A DNA stretch of 64,000 nt, taken from positions 30 to 64,029 of the forward strand of contig SVBA01000010.1 in NCBI GenBank assembly GCA_015059095.1, given 5' to 3'. The DNA is from Erysipelotrichaceae bacterium. Lineage in GTDB: Bacteria > Bacillota_I > Bacilli_A > RFN20 > CAG-449. Position numbers and translations under genes: made by a program. Position 1 is the first letter of the stretch. Every line of letters starts with the position of its first letter. Positions 15,389 to 54,042 of the stretch are shown one piece after another. The notes under the pieces were generated by a model, which did not search any database, was not told the DNA's origin, and saw nothing but the letters and a program-made list of their open reading frames with translations.

Positions 15389-16105
15389 ATGTTAGGACGA
15401 ATTCATTCAATTGAAACATTTGGAACTGTTGATGGTCCAGGCATTAGATTTGTATTATTTCTTAAAGGTTGTCCATTAAGATGCCTATATTGCCATAATC
15501 CAGATACTTGGGGAATGGAAGGGGCAATTACAATGGAAGCTAGTGAAATAATAGAAAAAGTTCTTAAGTATAAAAATTATTATAAAAACGGTGGATTAAC
15601 GATTAGTGGTGGTGAACCTTTAGTTCAAATTGACTTCTTAATTGAAGTTTGTAAACTTGCTAAAGAAAATAAAATTCATACTGCAGTTGATACATCTGGA
15701 ATCACATTTAATTTTAATGATACATCTAAATTTGACGAGTTAATTAAGTATGTTGACTTATTTTTATTAGACATCAAACATATAAATGAAGAAAAATGTA
15801 TTAAATTAACAGGTAAATCTAATATTAATACTTTAGAATTTGCTAGATATTTAGATAGAAATAATAAAAAAATGTGGATTAGACAAGTTTTACTTCCTGG
15901 TTATACTTCTTCTAAAAATGATTTAATGAAAACTAAAGAGTTTATTAAAACATTAAAAAATGTCGAAAAAATTGAAGTGTTACCATATCATACTATGGGT
16001 GAAGTAAAATATAAAAATTTAAATATTCCATATCCTTTAAAAGGTGTTGATACTCCTAGTAAAGAGTTAGTTTTGGAAGCTAATAAGATATTAAAAGGAG
16101 AATAG
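15389..16105 (+). CDS. pflA: pyruvate formate-lyase activating enzyme (radical SAM)
   Basis: GRIHSIETFGTVDGPGIRFVLFLKGCPLRCLYCHNPDTW shows the CxxxCxxC radical-SAM cluster and an N-terminus typical of PFL-AE. Confidence 0.9.
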   Translation: MLGRIHSIETFGTVDGPGIRFVLFLKGCPLRCLYCHNPDTWGMEGAITMEASEIIEKVLKYKNYYKNGGLTISGGEPLVQIDFLIEVCKLAKENKIHTAVDTSGITFNFNDTSKFDELIKYVDLFLLDIKHINEEKCIKLTGKSNINTLEFARYLDRNNKKMWIRQVLLPGYTSSKNDLMKTKEFIKTLKNVEKIEVLPYHTMGEVKYKNLNIPYPLKGVDTPSKELVLEANKILKGE

Positions 16106-16107
16106 TT

Positions 16108-16398
16108 ATGGAAAAAAGAATAAAAGTAATTGAATTTAGTGGTGAAAGCTGTGCGAATTGTTATTCGCTTATGCCTATTCTTTATTCATTAGTTAGTTCA
16201 TATGATGATGTAGATTTAAAACATATTGAAGTAAGTGAAGAAAGCATGGAAGTAGTTGCTAAATATGAAATTGATCGCGTTCCTACAATATTAATTTTAA
16301 AAGATGAAGTTGAAGTAGGAAGGTGTAGAGGCTATCAACCAGAAGAAATTCTTGCTATATGGTTAGATAGTAAAATTGAAGATGCAAGAAAGAAGTAG
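16108..16398 (+). CDS. small thioredoxin-fold protein with an atypical CANC active-site motif, embedded in the pfl operon
   Basis: IKVIEFSGESCANCYSLMPIL...DRVPTILILKDEVEVGR aligns to the thioredoxin fold (beta1-CxxC-alpha1, cis-Pro region VPT). SD AAAAGGAG before the ATG. Confidence 0.65.
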   Translation: MEKRIKVIEFSGESCANCYSLMPILYSLVSSYDDVDLKHIEVSEESMEVVAKYEIDRVPTILILKDEVEVGRCRGYQPEEILAIWLDSKIEDARKK

Positions 16399-16413: not shown

Positions 16414-18444
16414 ATGAAATATATTGAGTGGCAAGGTTTCATTCCAGGAAAATGGAGTAATGATGAAGTTGATGTTCGTGATTTTATACAAAAAAACTAT
16501 ACTCCTTATGAAGGTGATGGTTCGTTTTTAAAACCTGCGACAGAAGCAACAAAAAAACTTTGGGATGAAATATTAGAATTATCAAGAAAAGAAAGAGAAG
16601 CAGGTGGTGTTTTAGATGCTGATACTTCAGTTGTTTCAAATTTAACATCTCATGCTCCTGGATATATTGATAAAGATTTAGAAAAAATAGTAGGTTTACA
16701 AACTGATAAACCGTTTAAAAGAGCCTTACAACCTTTTGGTGGTATTAAAATGGCAGAACAAGCTTTAAGCCTTTATGGATATCAAATTGATCCAGAAATT
16801 AAACATATTTTTACTAACTACAGAAAAACTCATAATGATGGAGTATTTGATGTTTATACTCCAGAGATGAGATTAGCTAGAAGAGCGCATATTTTAACAG
16901 GTTTACCAGATGCTTATGGTAGAGGTAGAATTATTGGTGACTATAGAAGAGTAGCTTTATATGGTGTTGATTATTTAATTAAGCAAAAAGAAGAAGATAA
17001 ATCTTTAATCGATGGAGAAATGACTCCAGAAAAAATTAGAAATAGAGAAGAAATTGCTGATCAAATTAAAGCTTTAAAAAGATTAAAATTAATGGCAGAA
17101 TCTTATGGATGTGATATTTCTAAACCTGCAGGAACGGCTAAAGAAGCAATTCAAGCAACTTATTTTGGTTATTTAGGTGCAATTAAAGATCAAAATGGAG
17201 CAGCTATGTCAATTGGTAGAATTTCCACATTCTTAGATATTTATATTCAAAGAGATCTAGATAATGGGTTAATTGATGAAACAGAAGCTCAAGAGTTAAT
17301 TGATCATTTAGTAATGAAATTAAGAATTGTTAAATTTATGAGAATTCAATCGTATAATGAATTATTCTCTGGTGATCCAACTTGGGTTACTGAAGCTATT
17401 GGTGGTATGGGAGTTGATGGAAGAACTTTAGTTACTAAAAACTCATTCCGTATCTTACATACATTAAGAAACTTAGGACCTGCTCCAGAACCAAATTTAA
17501 CAGTATTATGGAGTAAGAATTTACCTCTTAATTTCAAAAGATTCTGTGCTCAATTATCTATTGATACTTCTTCAGTTCAATATGAATCAGATGATTTAAT
17601 GAGACCAGAAATGGGAGATGATTATGCAATTGCGTGTTGTGTATCTGCAATGAGAGTAGGTAAAGATATGCAATTCTTTGGTGCAAGAGCTAACTTGGCA
17701 AAATGTTTATTATACGCATTAAATGGTGGTGCTGATGAAATGATGCTTGATAAAGAAACAGGTAAACCATTACAAGTTTCTCCAGTATATGCAAGAGTAA
17801 CTTCTGATGAAGCTTTAGATTATAATGATGTTATTCAAAAATTCGAACAAATGACTGAATGGTTAGCAGGTGTATATGTAAATGTATTAAATATCATTCA
17901 CTATATGCACGATAAATATGCTTATGAAGCTATTGAAATGGCTCTTCATGATTCTGAAGTAAGAAGATTCTTTGCAACAGGTATTGCTGGATTAAGTTGT
18001 GCTGCTGACTCATTAAGTGCAATTAAATATGCGAAAGTATATCCTATTAGAAATGAACATGGTATCATCGTCGATTTTAAAACAGAAGGTGATTTCCCAA
18101 AATATGGTAATAATGATGATCGAGTAGATTCTATTGCAGTATATTTAGTTAAATCATTTATGAATAAGATTAAAAAACATTTCTCTTATAGAGAAAGTGT
18201 AAAAACTATGTCAATTCTTACTATTACTTCTAACGTAGTATATGGTAAAAATACTGGTAATACTCCAGATGGAAGAAGAGCAGGTGAAGCTTTAGCTCCT
18301 GGAGCAAATCCAATGCATGGTAGAGATAGTAATGGTGCATTAGCATCTCTTGAATCAGTAGCAAAATTACCTTATAGCTATTCTAGAGATGGTATCTCAA
18401 ATACATTCTCAATTACACCTAACTCATTAGGTAAAGATGATTAA
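16414..18444 (+). CDS. pflB: pyruvate formate-lyase catalytic chain, lacking the C-terminal glycyl-radical domain, which is encoded separately
   Basis: Near-colinear with E. coli PflB from [15 protein letters not shown] through the active site CCVS...ANPMHGRD to [11 protein letters not shown]. It ends with TAA at 18442-18444, where canonical PflB continues for about 80 more residues. Confidence 0.95.
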
Positions 18445-18460
18445 GAAAGGAAGGTTAATT

Positions 18461-18697
18461 ATGTCAAATAGTAAAGTTGATAATTTAGTAAATATGCTTG
18501 ATGCATATGTAGAAAATGGAGGACATCATCTTAATGTTAACGTATTTAGCCGTGAAACATTATTAGATGCTCAAGCTCATCCTGAGAAATATCCTCAATT
18601 AACAATTAGAGTAAGTGGATATGCAGTTAACTTCATTAAACTATCTAAAGAACAACAAGATGAAGTTATTTCAAGAACTATTCACGAATCAATGTAG
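18461..18697 (+). CDS. separately translated glycyl-radical domain of pyruvate formate-lyase (GrcA/YfiD-like small subunit)
   Basis: [78 protein letters not shown] matches the PflB C-terminus, including the RVSGY glycyl radical motif. SD GAAAGGAAGG lies 6 nt before ATG 18461. It is in a different frame from pflB. An alternative ATG at 18437 lacks an SD. Confidence 0.8.
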
Positions 18698-18711
18698 TTT
18701 AAAATTTAATA

Positions 18712-18746
18712 GACGAGTTCAAAAAAACGGGCTCGTTTTTATTTTT
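18712..18746 (+). terminator. rho-independent terminator after the pfl operon
   Basis: GACGAG...CTCGT stem followed by TTTTTATTTTT. Confidence 0.5.
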
Positions 18747-18772
18747 AATAAAAATATATTTTCAAAAATAAT

Positions 18773-47203: not shown

Positions 47204-47346
47204 AAAGATACCTCCATAATTAATATATATTGTAATGATTTATGGAAAATAATTCAAATTATTTTAAAAGGTTTGAAAAATATATATGAATATTTATTAC
47301 ATATATATTATAATATTGTAAATTAAGGTAAAGACAGGTGAAAATT

Positions 47347-50300
47347 ATGGAAGAAATTATTAGAACTTTAGTTGAAATGGATCCTAGTATGATTAGTCAA
47401 TATGTTGATTACTTCTTTTTAGCAATTGCTGCTGTTGGATTAATTGGCTTTATAATTGGCTTTATTAAAGGATTCTATAAAGAATCAACAACTTTTATTC
47501 TCACTGCTGTCTATTTTGTTTTACTAGCGTTTGTAAACAAATGGATATCAAGTGCGATTTATGAACTAGATATTACTAGTTTTGTACCTCAACTCCCTGA
47601 AGGGGTAAAAACGGTTGGGGATTACTTGAATTATATTTTATTAGATTTATGTGAAAAGAATGGAATAACCATTAGTAATTCTCAAGAGTTAGTAAATGCT
47701 ATTGTTTCTATAGCGTTAGCATTTATTAATTTAGTTGTATATCTTGTTTTACTACTCGCCGGTATTATTATTGTCGGGGTAGTAGATTTTATTGTATATT
47801 TTTTAATTGTAAGATTAATTGTTCCTAAATCAGCAAGAAAATATAGAAAGAAAAGATTATTTGGTGGAGGACTAGCGTTAATACGTTATGTAGTTGCATT
47901 CTCTTTACTATTATCTCCTTTCACTGCTATAGTCAACTCAACTGTTGGTAACTTGAGAGATGAAAATGGCAAAGTTCAAAGAAATGAACTCGATAATGAT
48001 TTCTATAATGCTTTAATGAATGTTTTAGAAGGATATAATAATTCAACTGTAGCTAAAGTTTTCTTTATTGTTGAAGATGAAGATGGTAGATCAATTGACG
48101 TAAGATTGATGGATTATATTACTAAATCTAAAATTGATGAAGAAACTGCTTTTTCTTTATACAATGAAATTGGCAATTTAGGTTCTTTAGCGATTGATGC
48201 TGTCTCTACTGGTTTTATTCAATCAACAAGTGCGATTGATTTAGCTTTATTATTACAAGCTGAATTTGTTGGACATGCGATTGATACTTTGGCTAAATCA
48301 ACTTTAGTACAAACAGTTTTATCTGTCGGTGTTACTTTAGCAGTTAACATGGATAAAGTTAAAGAATTTGTTGATTTGTCAAGTATTGATTTTATGCATG
48401 TGGATTGGAGTTCAACTTTAAATGCTGTTTCTACTGCTTATGAAGAATTATATGAAACTGGTTTAGTAGATGAAGTAATTGAAAATCCTGAAACTTTCTT
48501 AAATGATTTCTATCTTGATGGAGACCATGCTAATGGTATTAAAAATGCTCTAAAGAGTTTAGGAGATAATGAATTAATTTGTAAAATTATGCCTCCACTA
48601 ATTGCTTCTTTTATTTCTTCAATGAATAATCAATCTAGTGAAGAAAGTAATGGAGCAAAACGTTCTGATAATTTTGAAATTCCTGATGCTTTACAAGACG
48701 CGGATACATATAAAGATATTAGATGGGGTAGCGAACTAGCTAATTTATATGAGGTATTAGAAAATTTATCAAAACAATATTATGGTTATGAAAATGAACA
48801 TTTGACATTTAATATGATTAATACTTTACAACCAGATATTATTTTAAATGCTTTATTTGGTACAGGTATTGATTTTTCTAAAGAAGATGACACTTCTTAT
48901 AAGCAAGAATATGAACGCAACGTATTTGTTTATGGTGGAGAATATATTAATGAAGAAGTTACTCATAAACTTCCTGGTATTAAGAATATTTTAGGTGTTG
49001 ATACTTCTTCTACAGCAGGTTTATTGAACCTTCAAATCATTGATGTAATGTTTGAAAAAGATTTATTTAATGATTTTATTAGTTTATTAGACTTAAATCA
49101 ATTATTAAGTCTTGATGCAAATAAAATAGACTTGAATGAAGAAGTAGTAGATGTTGTTTCTAATTGGAAAAAAGTAGATTGGCAAAATGAACTTTCTGCA
49201 ATTGTGGATGTAGTATGTCCTATTATGAAATTAGTTGGTATTATTGGTGGGGAAAATGCTACTGTTAGTGAAGCAAAAAGAGCAGCATCTGAACCAGAAA
49301 TTGATTTAGATACAATTTTAGGTGATGATAGTTTGAATTGTTTAAAACGTGTAACTGATGTTTTGGTTGATTCACAAATCTTCAATGAAATTCTTCCAGA
49401 TGTATTAGAAGTTTATACTGATGATATGCAAGATGAATTAATTGAAGGTCTAGCTCTATCTGATTTGAACTTTACATATTTTGCATCTAATGATGATTCA
49501 ATGGTTAAAGAATTAAGAAGTTTCATTGATGATGTTGATACAATTAATGAAGATTTATCTTCATTATTAGATGATATCACTGGAGAGAATGCGATTGATG
49601 CATTGGTTAGTGATTGTGCAAAGGATCAATCTGTATTAGGTGAATTATTAAAAATTATTAAAGATAATCAAATCTTAAATAAACCTCTTACTCCAGAAGA
49701 AAAGTTAAATAATGTAAATACGACATTTACTAATGTTATGATTGGATTACTTTCTAATGGCGCTAATCCAGACAATACAATGAATATTTATAATATGACT
49801 GATGGTATGATAGAAATTGAAAAAGATACTATCGTTAATTTTGATAAGAATCCTGCTGGTTGGGATAATGAAATTGATGGAATCATTGGATTTATTGGGT
49901 CATTAAAAGATCCTAATGGAACAGAAGAACAAGTTATTCTAGACTTCGTATCTGGTAAAACAAGTGAAGATTTTGATTTGACAAATGAAATTTTTGGCTG
50001 TGGCAATGAAATTGAAAGAATTTTCGCAAGCGTCGATGATTCAGTAATTTTAAAAGAAGCATTCCCAAAAACTTTTGAAGGTTTACTTGGTGATACTTTT
50101 AAAGATGTAATCGGTGAAAATCCTGATTTCTATAATGTCGATAGTTGGGCTAGTGAAGGTCATTATTTTAACTTATTATTAGGTAGTATTGATGATTTAA
50201 GAGAAGGCGGACAAGATTTATCTTCTATTGATTGGATGAATGTTGAGGAAGCAAAATTAACTAATATATTAACTTCTTTATACAACACTCAATCAGTTGG

Positions 50301-53300
50301 TGGATCTTATGTAGAAGATTCTAGAGAAAATGGTATATTCCATAGCATGTTAAAAAATATTATTTCTCAAGCTTTAGAAAATTTAGAGATTAATATTGAA
50401 AGTGATGTAGATAATGGCATTATCGTATTAGAAGAAGATGTAATTAATAGAGACTTTGATATCGATAATGAAGAAAAAGTAATTTATAAAAAGGTTAGTG
50501 GAACTAATGTTTATGTCTCATGGTTAGGTGATAGTGAACATGACTATGATGGTGAAATTAAAAACATTGTTTCAATGATTGGGGAAGTTAAAGATCTTAC
50601 TGAAGGCGCAAGCATTGAAGATATGCAATCAATCTTAGAAAAGGTTAATAATTGCTATATTTTAAGAAATACTTTAGGTTTAATTATCGATTCTAAAACT
50701 GAATCTTTATTAAACGGTGAAGATGAATTAATGAGTGAGTTTATTGATCGTTCAGACTTTGAAGTATTCCACAAAGAAAACTTATCAATGACTCCTTATG
50801 AAATCGTTGATGAAGAATTGATTGAAGGAGATCCTTCTATAGTTATTAAAACGAGAGAAGATGAAATTAATGCTCGTCAAGAAGAATTAAATAGTATCGT
50901 AGATATTATTAATGATGCTCAAGATATTGGTGATAAACTAAATCAAGAAACTACAGGAGAAACTCAATTTGATCCTATTAAAGAAATTTTAGTTAATAAA
51001 ACATTATCAACTTCTGTAACAAATGAACAATCTAGTATTGAAGCAGTTTTAAATAATATGCATAATTCGGAAATCTTCAATGCGGTTGAATCGTTTACAA
51101 ATAATGATGAAAGAACATCATTAACTGCATTTGAATATTTCTTCCAATATGTTATGTCAAATGATGCATTAAATTCAGAAGAAGATAATGATGGAGATGG
51201 TCAATTAGATAAATTATTAAATGCTCCAACTGATCAATACATTTACTCTATTACAGAAGAAAATGGATGGATTAATACAGAAACTCAAGTTGGTGAAATT
51301 ACTAACTTTAATAATGGTTTATATAACTTTATTGAAAATCCATTAATCGACATTGTATTAGATACATCATTAGACTTTATTGATGCGGTAGAAGGTACAT
51401 TAAAAGATGATCTAGGAAATCCATTAACTCCAATTCAAGATATGTTATTAGATTTACATAGTTCTAAGATTTTAGACTTATCTACTGGTAAAATTATTGA
51501 TGATTATATTTTAAAGCAATTATTAAAAGCTCTAGATTATGATTATGAAACTGAATCAAATAACAAATATCATAGTGATAAAAAAGTATTTGATAATAGA
51601 GTTTCTAAGATTGACCAATTTATTACTGATCCAAATGCCTTAAAATTAGCATTAGTATCATTTGGTTGGGAATTATCAGAAGTAAGTGGAATTACTGAAG
51701 ATAATATGATGGAATATGTTTGGAGAAATGAAGGTAAGAGCATTGAATCATTAATCGGACATTTAAATGATTTTAAATTTGATAGTTTTGATATGAATGA
51801 TATTGATTCCGATTTCATTGACGAAGTAACTATTTCATTAAAGAATTCATTTGGATTAAATTATTTGGAAACTACTTCAAGTGAATATAATAATTCTACT
51901 TATCCATGTAGAAGTGCATACCAATTATTAGTTATTAAAATTACTGATACTTCGGTAGATGCGATTGAAGATGCATTAGGATTAGAAGATAGTGAAAGAA
52001 CAACAACTTCTGAAATGATTAAAGATTATGATCATGAAAGAAATATTATCGTTTCATTAATTGATGAATATAACAATGTTAAAGATATTATTGAAAAACC
52101 AGATATGGATAGTTTCTCTATTGGAAAATATAGTGAATATGATGGTTCTTCAAAGGATGATTTAGATAAAATTGATGGATTAATTGAAATTTTAGATGAT
52201 TCAGAAGTATATAATTATGGATATGAAAGAACAAGTACTTCACTAGAAAGAAATATCTATGAACGCATGATTATGAAATTAGTTAACACTGTTAAGACAG
52301 GATTTGAATCATCAAATATTGTAACTCCTGAAGAAAGTGAATATACATCAAGTTATGATATCGCTCAAGGTGAATATGATTCTGAAAAACAAATTACATT
52401 TAATATCGCTCGTCGTTATAAAGATGTTGAAGAATTATTAGAAGGCGGAGATATTGTTAATGATGTAAATGATGATTCAAGAAATCATATTGAAGGATTA
52501 GTTGGTGAATTAGAAGATTCTAAAGTATTCAACTATACTCAAATTGGTGTTGGTCATAAAGAAAATGATAATTCAGATCATTCTTACTATGAACATATCG
52601 TTATTTATATGATTGAAAAGACTAATGACGCATTTGAAGAAGCTCTTGAATTAGATACTACTAATTCTCAAGAAGATAAGATTATTTCTTATAATAAAGA
52701 ATTAGATGTTATCTTGGATGTAATGCAAGCATATCAAAGTGTAAGTTCTAATTTTGAAAATTCGAATTCTATTGATTTTGATGCTATTAGTGATAAAGAA
52801 GCATTTATGTTATCAATGGAAGATGTATTAAAACCTCTTTATTCTTCAGATGTTTACCACTATGTTAGAAATAATGTTAGAACTTCCAAAGAAGGAGATA
52901 ATCAATTATCTAACTTATCAATCTTTGAACAAATGATTTATACTATGTTATCTTCTTCAAGTGAAGTAATTGAGAACTTACATATTGAACATACTGGTAT
53001 TAACTATTCTGAAGTTGTTTCTTCTGATAAAGATGTATTGAACTTAAGAATTAGAGAAGTATCTAATTCTGATTTGAATAATGAAGAAGTTCGTTGGTGG
53101 GATTATGAAGTTAGTGAAGATACAATGCTAGGTGAAGTTACTAAGATTAGACATATTACAGGTGAAGATTTTGGTAGTGCACTTGATACTACTAATGGTG
53201 TTGATTTAACAGGATTAATTAGAGATATTGAAAATCCTTTAAGCGAAGATGGATTGTTAAATTTAATTAATAAATCATTTATTTTACATGATACTGTACC

Positions 53301-54042
53301 AAATATTATTGAAAAATACATCGATAGCCATGAAGCTGAAGAAGAAGATGGTATTGCAGAAGAAGATCAAGCAATTGCAGTTAATGATTTATTATTCTTA
53401 AAAGCAATTCCTGAAAATGGATATCATGATTACTCTAATACAAGAGGCTATGCAGGTGAACATGTTGATACTTATAGAATTGATAATCATATTGGTTATA
53501 CATTCTTAGATAAAGTTGAACATTGGGATAATGATTTATATCATGTTTCTAAATTAATCGAGTTATTAGAAAACTTAAAAGAAGCAGGTGAAGATATTAA
53601 TCAATTAGAAGGTAATTTCTTCCAATACTTATTTGATCATCTTGCTCAAACTGAAACATATCATATGATTGTTCCTCAAATTACAATCTCAATCTTAAAT
53701 GATTATTTAAGTGTTGATATTTTTGGTACACCTTATGGATTAGGTTCTTTCATTAATGGTCATGATGATGTTGAAAAATTATCTACATATTTCTATATTA
53801 TCGATAATCATGCAATGTATTTATTAGATGAATCTAAATACTATGAAGAAGATGAATTAGGAAATGTCTTAGATTATACTAATGAAACTCACCATAATGA
53901 AGGTTTAGGTATCGATATGTTTGTTAAGTATTTAACTACATTAAATAGTGAAAATAAACCTTCTAGTTCAGTTTATGCTTTAGGTGGATTAATGATGGAA
54001 AATTATGACGCACACCAAATTGATGGAGATCCACTCGTTTAA
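47347..54042 (+). CDS. giant (2231 aa) membrane-anchored, highly acidic hypothetical protein with degenerate internal repeats
   Basis: Uninterrupted ORF. SD AGGTGA lies 6 nt before ATG 47347. The first 200 or so aa carry about 5 TM helices. The remaining 2000 or so aa are D/E/N/S/I-rich with no recognisable catalytic motif and show a recurrent degenerate unit around [DS]S[EKQ][VI][FY]N[YAE] (for example DDSEVYNYGYER, EDSKVFNYTQIG, YSSDVYHYVRNN, VDSQIFNEILPD, HNSEIFNAVESF). Confidence 0.8.
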   Translation: MEEIIRTLVEMDPSMISQYVDYFFLAIAAVGLIGFIIGFIKGFYKESTTFILTAVYFVLLAFVNKWISSAIYELDITSFVPQLPEGVKTVGDYLNYILLDLCEKNGITISNSQELVNAIVSIALAFINLVVYLVLLLAGIIIVGVVDFIVYFLIVRLIVPKSARKYRKKRLFGGGLALIRYVVAFSLLLSPFTAIVNSTVGNLRDENGKVQRNELDNDFYNALMNVLEGYNNSTVAKVFFIVEDEDGRSIDVRLMDYITKSKIDEETAFSLYNEIGNLGSLAIDAVSTGFIQSTSAIDLALLLQAEFVGHAIDTLAKSTLVQTVLSVGVTLAVNMDKVKEFVDLSSIDFMHVDWSSTLNAVSTAYEELYETGLVDEVIENPETFLNDFYLDGDHANGIKNALKSLGDNELICKIMPPLIASFISSMNNQSSEESNGAKRSDNFEIPDALQDADTYKDIRWGSELANLYEVLENLSKQYYGYENEHLTFNMINTLQPDIILNALFGTGIDFSKEDDTSYKQEYERNVFVYGGEYINEEVTHKLPGIKNILGVDTSSTAGLLNLQIIDVMFEKDLFNDFISLLDLNQLLSLDANKIDLNEEVVDVVSNWKKVDWQNELSAIVDVVCPIMKLVGIIGGENATVSEAKRAASEPEIDLDTILGDDSLNCLKRVTDVLVDSQIFNEILPDVLEVYTDDMQDELIEGLALSDLNFTYFASNDDSMVKELRSFIDDVDTINEDLSSLLDDITGENAIDALVSDCAKDQSVLGELLKIIKDNQILNKPLTPEEKLNNVNTTFTNVMIGLLSNGANPDNTMNIYNMTDGMIEIEKDTIVNFDKNPAGWDNEIDGIIGFIGSLKDPNGTEEQVILDFVSGKTSEDFDLTNEIFGCGNEIERIFASVDDSVILKEAFPKTFEGLLGDTFKDVIGENPDFYNVDSWASEGHYFNLLLGSIDDLREGGQDLSSIDWMNVEEAKLTNILTSLYNTQSVGGSYVEDSRENGIFHSMLKNIISQALENLEINIESDVDNGIIVLEEDVINRDFDIDNEEKVIYKKVSGTNVYVSWLGDSEHDYDGEIKNIVSMIGEVKDLTEGASIEDMQSILEKVNNCYILRNTLGLIIDSKTESLLNGEDELMSEFIDRSDFEVFHKENLSMTPYEIVDEELIEGDPSIVIKTREDEINARQEELNSIVDIINDAQDIGDKLNQETTGETQFDPIKEILVNKTLSTSVTNEQSSIEAVLNNMHNSEIFNAVESFTNNDERTSLTAFEYFFQYVMSNDALNSEEDNDGDGQLDKLLNAPTDQYIYSITEENGWINTETQVGEITNFNNGLYNFIENPLIDIVLDTSLDFIDAVEGTLKDDLGNPLTPIQDMLLDLHSSKILDLSTGKIIDDYILKQLLKALDYDYETESNNKYHSDKKVFDNRVSKIDQFITDPNALKLALVSFGWELSEVSGITEDNMMEYVWRNEGKSIESLIGHLNDFKFDSFDMNDIDSDFIDEVTISLKNSFGLNYLETTSSEYNNSTYPCRSAYQLLVIKITDTSVDAIEDALGLEDSERTTTSEMIKDYDHERNIIVSLIDEYNNVKDIIEKPDMDSFSIGKYSEYDGSSKDDLDKIDGLIEILDDSEVYNYGYERTSTSLERNIYERMIMKLVNTVKTGFESSNIVTPEESEYTSSYDIAQGEYDSEKQITFNIARRYKDVEELLEGGDIVNDVNDDSRNHIEGLVGELEDSKVFNYTQIGVGHKENDNSDHSYYEHIVIYMIEKTNDAFEEALELDTTNSQEDKIISYNKELDVILDVMQAYQSVSSNFENSNSIDFDAISDKEAFMLSMEDVLKPLYSSDVYHYVRNNVRTSKEGDNQLSNLSIFEQMIYTMLSSSSEVIENLHIEHTGINYSEVVSSDKDVLNLRIREVSNSDLNNEEVRWWDYEVSEDTMLGEVTKIRHITGEDFGSALDTTNGVDLTGLIRDIENPLSEDGLLNLINKSFILHDTVPNIIEKYIDSHEAEEEDGIAEEDQAIAVNDLLFLKAIPENGYHDYSNTRGYAGEHVDTYRIDNHIGYTFLDKVEHWDNDLYHVSKLIELLENLKEAGEDINQLEGNFFQYLFDHLAQTETYHMIVPQITISILNDYLSVDIFGTPYGLGSFINGHDDVEKLSTYFYIIDNHAMYLLDESKYYEEDELGNVLDYTNETHHNEGLGIDMFVKYLTTLNSENKPSSSVYALGGLMMENYDAHQIDGDPLV

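Follow-up and report, generated by a model that had tools for sequence, protein, structure and literature searches.

A probable two-chain pyruvate formate-lyase with its glycyl-radical domain encoded as a separate small protein

We analyzed a 64-kb stretch of DNA from an Erysipelotrichaceae bacterium (contig SVBA01000010.1; the whole stretch is called the window below) in which the gene for pyruvate formate-lyase (PFL), pflB, is divided between two open reading frames (ORFs). The first encodes the catalytic chain and the second a small protein that carries the glycyl radical site. By analogy with single-chain PFL and with the E. coli protein GrcA (also called YfiD), we take the two, with a probability of about 0.85, to be an obligate two-chain PFL of a gut or rumen anaerobe, encoded within a four-gene operon, in which the radical domain would act in trans. 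The features at the junction are as follows.

16414 to 18444, + strand: PflB large (catalytic) chain, 676 amino acids (aa), ending ...SLGKDD
18442 to 18444, + strand: TAA stop codon of the large chain, in the loop preceding the radical domain
18445 to 18454, + strand: Shine-Dalgarno (SD) sequence GAAAGGAAGG for the small chain, with the ATG 6 nucleotides (nt) downstream
18461 to 18697, + strand: glycyl-radical small chain of the GrcA3 family, 78 aa, with the stop codon TAG at 18695-18697

According to the initial annotation, the enzyme is naturally divided into a catalytic chain and a radical mini-subunit with a start of its own, with an in-frame TAA followed by an SD sequence and, 6 nt later, by ATG 18461, all in the loop before the radical domain. 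Each of these elements was found where it had been placed, and the split itself is supported by conservation, by selection, and by identical junctions in separate assemblies, as detailed below. The small-chain frame is +1 relative to the large ORF, and the spacer from TAA to ATG is 16 nt. In a profile search, the large chain matched positions 2-663 and the small chain positions 664-744 of the 744 positions of TIGR01255; for the Pfam family Gly_radical (PF01228, 106 positions), the corresponding segments were 2-48 and 51-106. Because the two chains tile both profiles without overlap or loss, the two ORFs are, by these alignments, exactly colinear with a normal PflB, and no residues are lost at the split. 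The annotated colinearity of the 78-aa ORF with the PflB C terminus, and the combined length of 676 + 78 = 754 aa, are thus borne out. By alignment, the break falls at about residue 678 of E. coli PFL. The ORF listing also gave an 86-aa alternative for the small chain, starting at ATG 18437; we preferred ATG 18461 because it is the start that the SD sequence precedes, because the homologues are 76 to 80 aa long, and because the 78-position model NF038360 is matched end to end.

The large chain has the properties of a PFL up to the point of the break. It matches PF02901 with E = 6e-208 and scores 1076.8 bits against TIGR01255 (cutoff, 994.2), which places it above the PflB equivalog threshold, and it aligns with residues ∼10-678 of E. 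coli PFL. The catalytic Cys-Cys pair lies in the motif AIACCVSA (17626-17649; codons 17635-17640, encoding Cys408/Cys409, equivalent to E. coli C418/C419) and is invariant in the PflB alignment. There is no glycyl radical site on the same polypeptide as the barrel, the large chain stopping at position 663 of the 744 in TIGR01255. An AlphaFold2 model built from a 31-sequence alignment had a mean confidence score (pLDDT) of 92.3, and its Foldseek match was 2pfl_A (template-modeling [TM] score, 0.97; root mean square deviation, 1.2 Å; 63% identity). As modeled, the large chain is a PFL fold with the catalytic cysteines and without the radical site.

The small chain carries the motif RVSGY (codons 18608-18622), whose radical glycine is Gly53 (codon 18617-18619). 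It matches PF01228 with E = 3.6e-23, aligns with residues 684-759 of the structure 1H16, and is equivalent to residues 677-759 of E. coli PFL. The initial annotation was right to note the resemblance to GrcA/YfiD: by its score of 159.5 bits, a narrow margin over the cutoff of 158, the small chain belongs to NF038360, "autonomous glycyl radical cofactor GrcA3" (E = 1.6e-47; positions 2-78 of 78). Chance cannot account for matches with such E values. Against the GrcA/YfiD model proper, TIGR04365, it scored 92 bits, below the cutoff of 170, and matched profile positions 65-126 only.

Frameshifts are a plausible defect of sequence derived from metagenome-assembled genomes, and this prior plausibility is the sole point in favor of a sequencing or assembly indel, or of a recent strain-specific pseudogene, as the cause of the split. 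The exact small chain is present on 18 contigs, and we examined 8 of these, from ENA, JGI, and Logan assemblies of different samples. In seven of the eight, the 60 nt preceding the ATG are identical to the window, even at a locus whose overall identity is just 98.1%. In the eighth contig (L097:231-290, equivalent to window 18401-18460), which represents a natural variant within the same organism, the TAA has become TAT, so that the large chain is extended by nine residues and overlaps the start of the small chain. The split is kept there, and the exact position of the stop is therefore not critical. At the junction, what sets the window apart from its closest contiguous relatives is not an indel of 1 or 2 nt but a 31-nt cassette made up of the stop, the 16-nt SD spacer, the ATG, and three codons. 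Ratios of nonsynonymous to synonymous substitution rates (dN/dS), calculated by the Nei-Gojobori method for pairs with synonymous divergence (dS) from 0.04 to >1, were 0.03 to 0.10 for the large chain and 0 to 0.08 for the small chain. Both chains are under strong purifying selection, with dN/dS far below 1 on either side of the junction. Nor is this strain alone disrupted: many lineages keep the split, including 15 others in the clade to which the window belongs (clade A, below) and 5 loci of a second lineage. An indel artifact is refuted by the seven identical junctions in separate assemblies, and we give an error or a recent pseudogene a negligible probability.

The split is widespread. When GTDB species genomes were scanned with the concatenated chains as the query, 17 of 80 PflB loci were split in the same loop. 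The split taxa include Christensenellaceae, Ca. Scatosoma, Ca. Gallimonas, Gastranaerophilales, Blautia, Oscillospiraceae, Faecousia, Collinsella, and the cultured Breznakia blatticola DSM 28867; seven additional metagenomic lineages are likewise split. Stand-alone homologues of the small chain form more than 120 clusters (76 to 111 aa, mostly 76 to 80 aa; 81 to 100% identical), and the identities of small and large chains covary, a sign that the two have evolved together. A search of representative sequences with the large chain gave a single 756-aa protein (56% identity) as the closest full-length match; the other matches were mostly fragments, so their length distribution is uninformative. 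Across the split loci, the ORFs range from overlapping or abutting to separated by as many as 296 nt, all three frame relations (0, +1, and +2) occur, and an AGGAGG-like SD is visible at the junction in most cases. An origin of the split in a mobile element (intron or homing endonuclease) was considered and rejected: the spacer in the window is 16 nt, and no element was seen in those junction spacers of relatives that were inspected, spacers of 30 to 90 nt consisting of AT-rich sequence plus an SD.

In one lineage of Clostridia (L005-L007), the spacer of 85 to 90 nt contains a perfect σ70 promoter, TTGACA-17-TATAAT (L005:5935-5963; L006:2835-2863), which suggests that the small chain of the L005/L006 lineage can be transcribed alone. 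Our scan of the interchain spacers found consensus promoters in L005 and L006 only, and a dedicated small-chain promoter is therefore not a general feature.

These junctions also bear on a different explanation, namely, that a programmed +1 frameshift or a bypass of the stop fuses the two ORFs into a PflB of ∼760 aa, with the SD-like element acting as the stimulator. The small-chain frame is indeed open for 14 nt before the TAA (the stop-to-stop segment begins at 18431), and a +1 shift within these nucleotides would produce the fusion. Yet the sequence at that point, GAT GAT TAA, contains no slippery sequence, and gene callers and the 78-position NF038360 model agree on an independent start. 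Among the relatives, the frame may be 0, +1, or +2, the spacer may reach 296 nt and, in L012, contains two in-frame stops, and in one lineage it holds the consensus promoter just described. The diversity of spacers and frames rules out frameshift-mediated fusion as a general mechanism, and we consider recoding at the window locus very improbable.

The remaining features of the operon are listed here.

15389 to 16105, + strand: pflA, PFL activating enzyme (a radical S-adenosylmethionine [SAM] protein), first gene of the operon; TIGR02493, 312 bits versus a cutoff of 231.75; Pfam domains Fer4_12 and Radical_SAM
16108 to 16398, + strand: thioredoxin-like gene, 96 aa, with a CxxC motif (SCANCY); Pfam Thioredoxin, E = 2.1e-11
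18711 to 18748, + strand: intrinsic terminator-like hairpin (18711-18738) with its T-run, closing the four-gene operon

The order is pflA, the thioredoxin-like gene, the large chain, and the small chain, with gaps of 2, 15, and 16 nt. The sole terminator-like site is that 3′ of the small chain; there is none between the large and small chains. The genes flanking the operon (those for a glycosyltransferase, a Sel1-repeat protein, an M16 peptidase, and TruB) are unrelated to it. Elsewhere in the window, on the + strand at 47338-54042, is an ORF of 2234 aa that begins with GTG and has no Pfam match at E ≤ 1e-5. At all clade-A loci, pflA is upstream of pflB. At one of the split loci (L009:3013-3747), the pflA call consists of two ORFs (63 and 160 aa), whereas in the near-identical L008 it is one gene of 244 aa; the division in L009 is probably an assembly frameshift.

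In a neighbor-joining (NJ) tree, the split forms fell into two separate groups, clade A, which includes the window, and clade B (L019, L038, L047, L072, and L080). In clade A, the large chain ends directly after SLGK[DE][DE], and the gene order is that of the window. In clade B, the order is the usual one for pflB loci (large chain, small chain, pflA), there is no thioredoxin-like gene, and the large chain continues past ALGK into an acidic tail of 20 to 50 aa. Four of the five tails contain cysteines, grouped in CxxC-like or comparable clusters (CSSC, CACC, CAGGAC, and CNTC), and that of L080 contains none. The segment that forms the tail is present as an in-frame insertion in the contiguous relatives L044 and L089.

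Within clade A, the state of the gene changes over short distances. Matches to the large chain with 90 to 100% identity to the window are 676 to 677 aa long. Those with 86 to 88% identity (P0297-P0319) are contiguous proteins of 750 to 756 aa, with the junction reading ...SLGKED-KVDNLV.... At 81 to 84% identity, the matches are again short (675 to 679 aa), except for P0322, a 700-aa call that has extra N-terminal residues and ends in ...SLGKDD. Examples of the contiguous form are found at L099:8001-10256 and L108:10001-12253, where a PflB of 750 to 751 aa, 87% identical, lies directly 3′ of pflA without a thioredoxin-like gene. The contiguous forms of clade A are nested among the split forms in the NJ tree: bootstrap support was 100% for the window together with the P0297 group, 100% for the core clade with the contiguous L014/L015, and 0% for monophyly of the split forms. 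Because of this nesting, and because the opposite direction would need many parallel fissions, parsimony favors a split ancestor with at least two later refusions in clade A. The number of events is provisional because the trees are NJ trees of limited taxa.

The thioredoxin-like gene appears to follow the state of pflB. It lies between pflA and the large chain in 22 of the 22 clade-A split loci in which the upstream region is visible, and it is found in none of the seven contiguous clade-A loci (L014, L015, L099-101, and L108-109), in which pflA directly precedes pflB. The remaining 63 loci of the GTDB set, whether contiguous or clade-B split, lack it as well. The family comprises 324 clusters named only "thioredoxin family protein," and both the CxxC motif and the sequence GYQPEEILE.W are conserved in 12 of 12 aligned orthologues. 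The 96-aa protein of the window scored 44.1 bits against PF00085 (cutoff, 23.5) and 43.4 bits against TIGR01068 (cutoff, 96.8). It falls below every NCBIfam thioredoxin cutoff and, since an equivalog-level score is missed, appears to belong to a distinct thioredoxin-like family. An apparent counterexample, the thioredoxin-like match P0459, listed on a 12,856-bp contig as is the contiguous PflB P0307, was rejected: the PflB fragment that adjoins it runs off the end of the contig, and its nearest relatives (80%) are the split-type L103/L106 rather than P0307. The comparison of loci is suggestive of a link between the thioredoxin-like gene and the split state in clade A; it is suggestive rather than proven because just two independent transitions are inferred. 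As a tentative proposal that goes further, the CxxC protein might be a dedicated third component of PFL, needed only with a detachable radical domain, with clade-A PflB switching repeatedly between a three-protein form (both chains plus the CxxC protein) and a one-protein form. Such a component could maintain Cys408/Cys409 in the reduced state for as long as the barrel is open, or, on small chains that are not docked, it could quench the radical or guard it.

The name given by NCBI to the small-chain family, "autonomous glycyl radical cofactor," raises the question of whether the 78-aa protein is a spare part only, which repairs a full-length PflB encoded elsewhere, with the adjacent truncated pflB a decaying or noncatalytic paralogue. 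A stand-alone copy in another organism fits this explanation, and so does the fact that the view of the genome is limited to a part of it. Set against these points, the truncated chain has dN/dS values of 0.03 to 0.10 across lineages with dS >1, and it keeps the Cys-Cys pair and exceeds the PflB equivalog cutoff. Moreover, in the 17 split GTDB loci, the small chain always adjoins the large chain, and no truncated large chain was seen without one. Last, the window has no RVSGY motif besides that of the small chain and no further PFL. The initial annotation had called the detached radical domain the only one; this holds for the operon and for the 64-kb window, and the statement extends that far. 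We regard a role solely as a spare part as unlikely.

For the two-chain PFL that we favor, a mechanism can be sketched from what is known of E. coli PflB and GrcA. PflA would install the radical on Gly53 of the small chain, which would dock noncovalently in the large chain and complete its open barrel. The radical would then pass to Cys409 and on to Cys408, and catalysis would proceed as in single-chain PFL. Two advantages may be imagined. The oxygen-labile part would be a cheap, exchangeable cartridge of 9 kDa, replaced alone after O2 cleavage at Gly53. In addition, the radical domain would not need to swing out of an 85-kDa protein to meet PflA, which may ease access for the activase. The weakest step is the conjecture that the CxxC thioredoxin-like protein, which is conserved together with the split, has its function there.

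Several points weigh against the two-chain reading. In E. coli, the engineered truncation tPFL(1-695) showed weaker binding of YfiD and weaker activation than O2-cleaved PFL (PMC8683613; restated in a 2026 review, PMC13450708). A large chain that ends at ∼678 therefore needs contacts not employed by the E. coli pair, perhaps ones made by the additional residues at the N terminus of the small chain. The stand-alone copy mentioned above, P0120, is a 77-aa GrcA3 protein, 88% identical to the small chain of the window, encoded by a monocistronic gene (L001-L004:6001-6234; L110-L119:10001-10234) that follows two ABC-transporter genes and precedes a gene for a helicase; the organism is a common one in the gut, with a G+C content of 28.5%. 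No PflB lies within 10 kb of it on the contigs, all of which share one context. It stands alone, and some GrcA3 members may therefore be true spare parts. A second, full-length PflB may be encoded elsewhere in the genome, outside the window. Finally, the thioredoxin correlation depends on two inferred transitions and on NJ trees.

Because annotation curators have already recognized the small-chain family as a GrcA type, a system of this kind is not in itself new. Absent from the literature searched were the obligate two-chain architecture, its recurrence and reversibility, and the thioredoxin-like partner. In a search that missed most subscription papers, we found no paper about a naturally split PFL, "GrcA3," or the PDB codes 38la/38lb (see below), and the retrieved passages of a 2021 Journal of Biological Chemistry (JBC) paper and of a 2026 review of glycyl radical enzymes (GREs) do not describe a naturally split PFL. 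The two-chain nature is hidden by current annotation pipelines, in which the large chain is entered as a complete formate C-acetyltransferase and the small chain as a spare part.

Two open questions about GREs, namely, how the activase gains access to a glycine that the barrel encloses and how a radical domain acting in trans, such as GrcA, docks on PFL, could be approached directly in a natural PFL whose 9-kDa radical domain is separate. Such an enzyme could be compared with natural fused versions that are 87% identical. The arrangement suggests a design logic in which the oxygen-labile part is made cheap to replace, and it suggests that autonomous cofactors of the GrcA type could have arisen when a gene underwent fission and one part was then relocated. 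Should its association with the split be real, the thioredoxin-like protein would add a redox component not previously linked to PFL.

The closest known systems are the spare parts of PFL. GrcA/YfiD restores PFL cleaved by O2 (PMC8683613) and recovers the formate production that a PflB G734A strain has lost (PMC12338860). Its residues 61-127 copy PFL residues 693-759, comprising strand β10, the glycine loop, and the C-terminal helix (PMC8683613), and its Gly102 abstracts hydrogen from Cys419 intermolecularly (PMC12338860). In the passages retrieved, the 2021 JBC paper gives YfiD and T4 Y06I as the only validated spare parts, and YfiD is the sole one discussed in the 2026 GRE review. Like these proteins, which are small, separate homologues of the PflB C terminus with the RVSGY glycine, activated by PflA and presenting the radical in trans to Cys419 (PMC8683613, PMC12338860), the small chain of the window is a detached radical domain, and it aligns with residues 68-127 of GrcA (6owr). 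There are four differences. In E. coli, PflB is full length and GrcA is a backup, whereas in the window the adjacent PflB lacks a radical domain of its own, and the small chain is therefore required. GrcA has 127 aa, with a disordered N terminus of ∼60 aa, whereas the window chain has 78 aa and lacks that region. Unlike GrcA, the window chain also holds the equivalent of PFL residues 677-692. Last, grcA is unlinked to pflB, but the two chains of the window are encoded in one operon.

NF038360 (GrcA3) is the best-scoring model for the small chains of both clades and for the stand-alone P0120, with L008, L077, and P0120 scoring 154 to 157, just below the cutoff of 158. Its name implies a spare part, and in the sources searched we found no statement that its members lie behind a C-terminally truncated PflB.

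Two PDB entries, both named "Formate acetyltransferase," resemble the large chains. 38la_A (687 aa) aligns with large-chain residues 6-676 and ends with ...NSLGKED at the position of the natural stop, and 38lb_A (739 aa) finishes, as do clade-B large chains, with a tail that contains Cys, ALGKSGNVMFGECDMCEM... (CDMC). Both are from organisms other than that of the window (79% identity to L077 and 74.5% to L080). Each entry has four chains and no small chain, and each is in the 2026 PDB sequence file and absent from the structure library of releases to 2026-04-08. No citing paper was found in the literature searched. These entries suggest that others are already working on such proteins.

A more distant parallel is the split class II ribonucleotide reductase of Pseudomonas aeruginosa, in which a radical enzyme that usually has a single chain is likewise made as two polypeptides; the enzyme family is unrelated, and that split does not isolate a domain bearing the radical cofactor (PMC4520616). 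Closer in structure is the model of tPFL(1-695) with YfiD from the Drennan laboratory, in which a barrel without its last strand and glycine loop is completed by a separate radical-domain protein (PMC8683613), as we propose for the window. In contrast to that engineered truncation, the natural break is 17 residues farther upstream (∼678), and the natural small chain supplies the equivalent of PFL residues 677-692.

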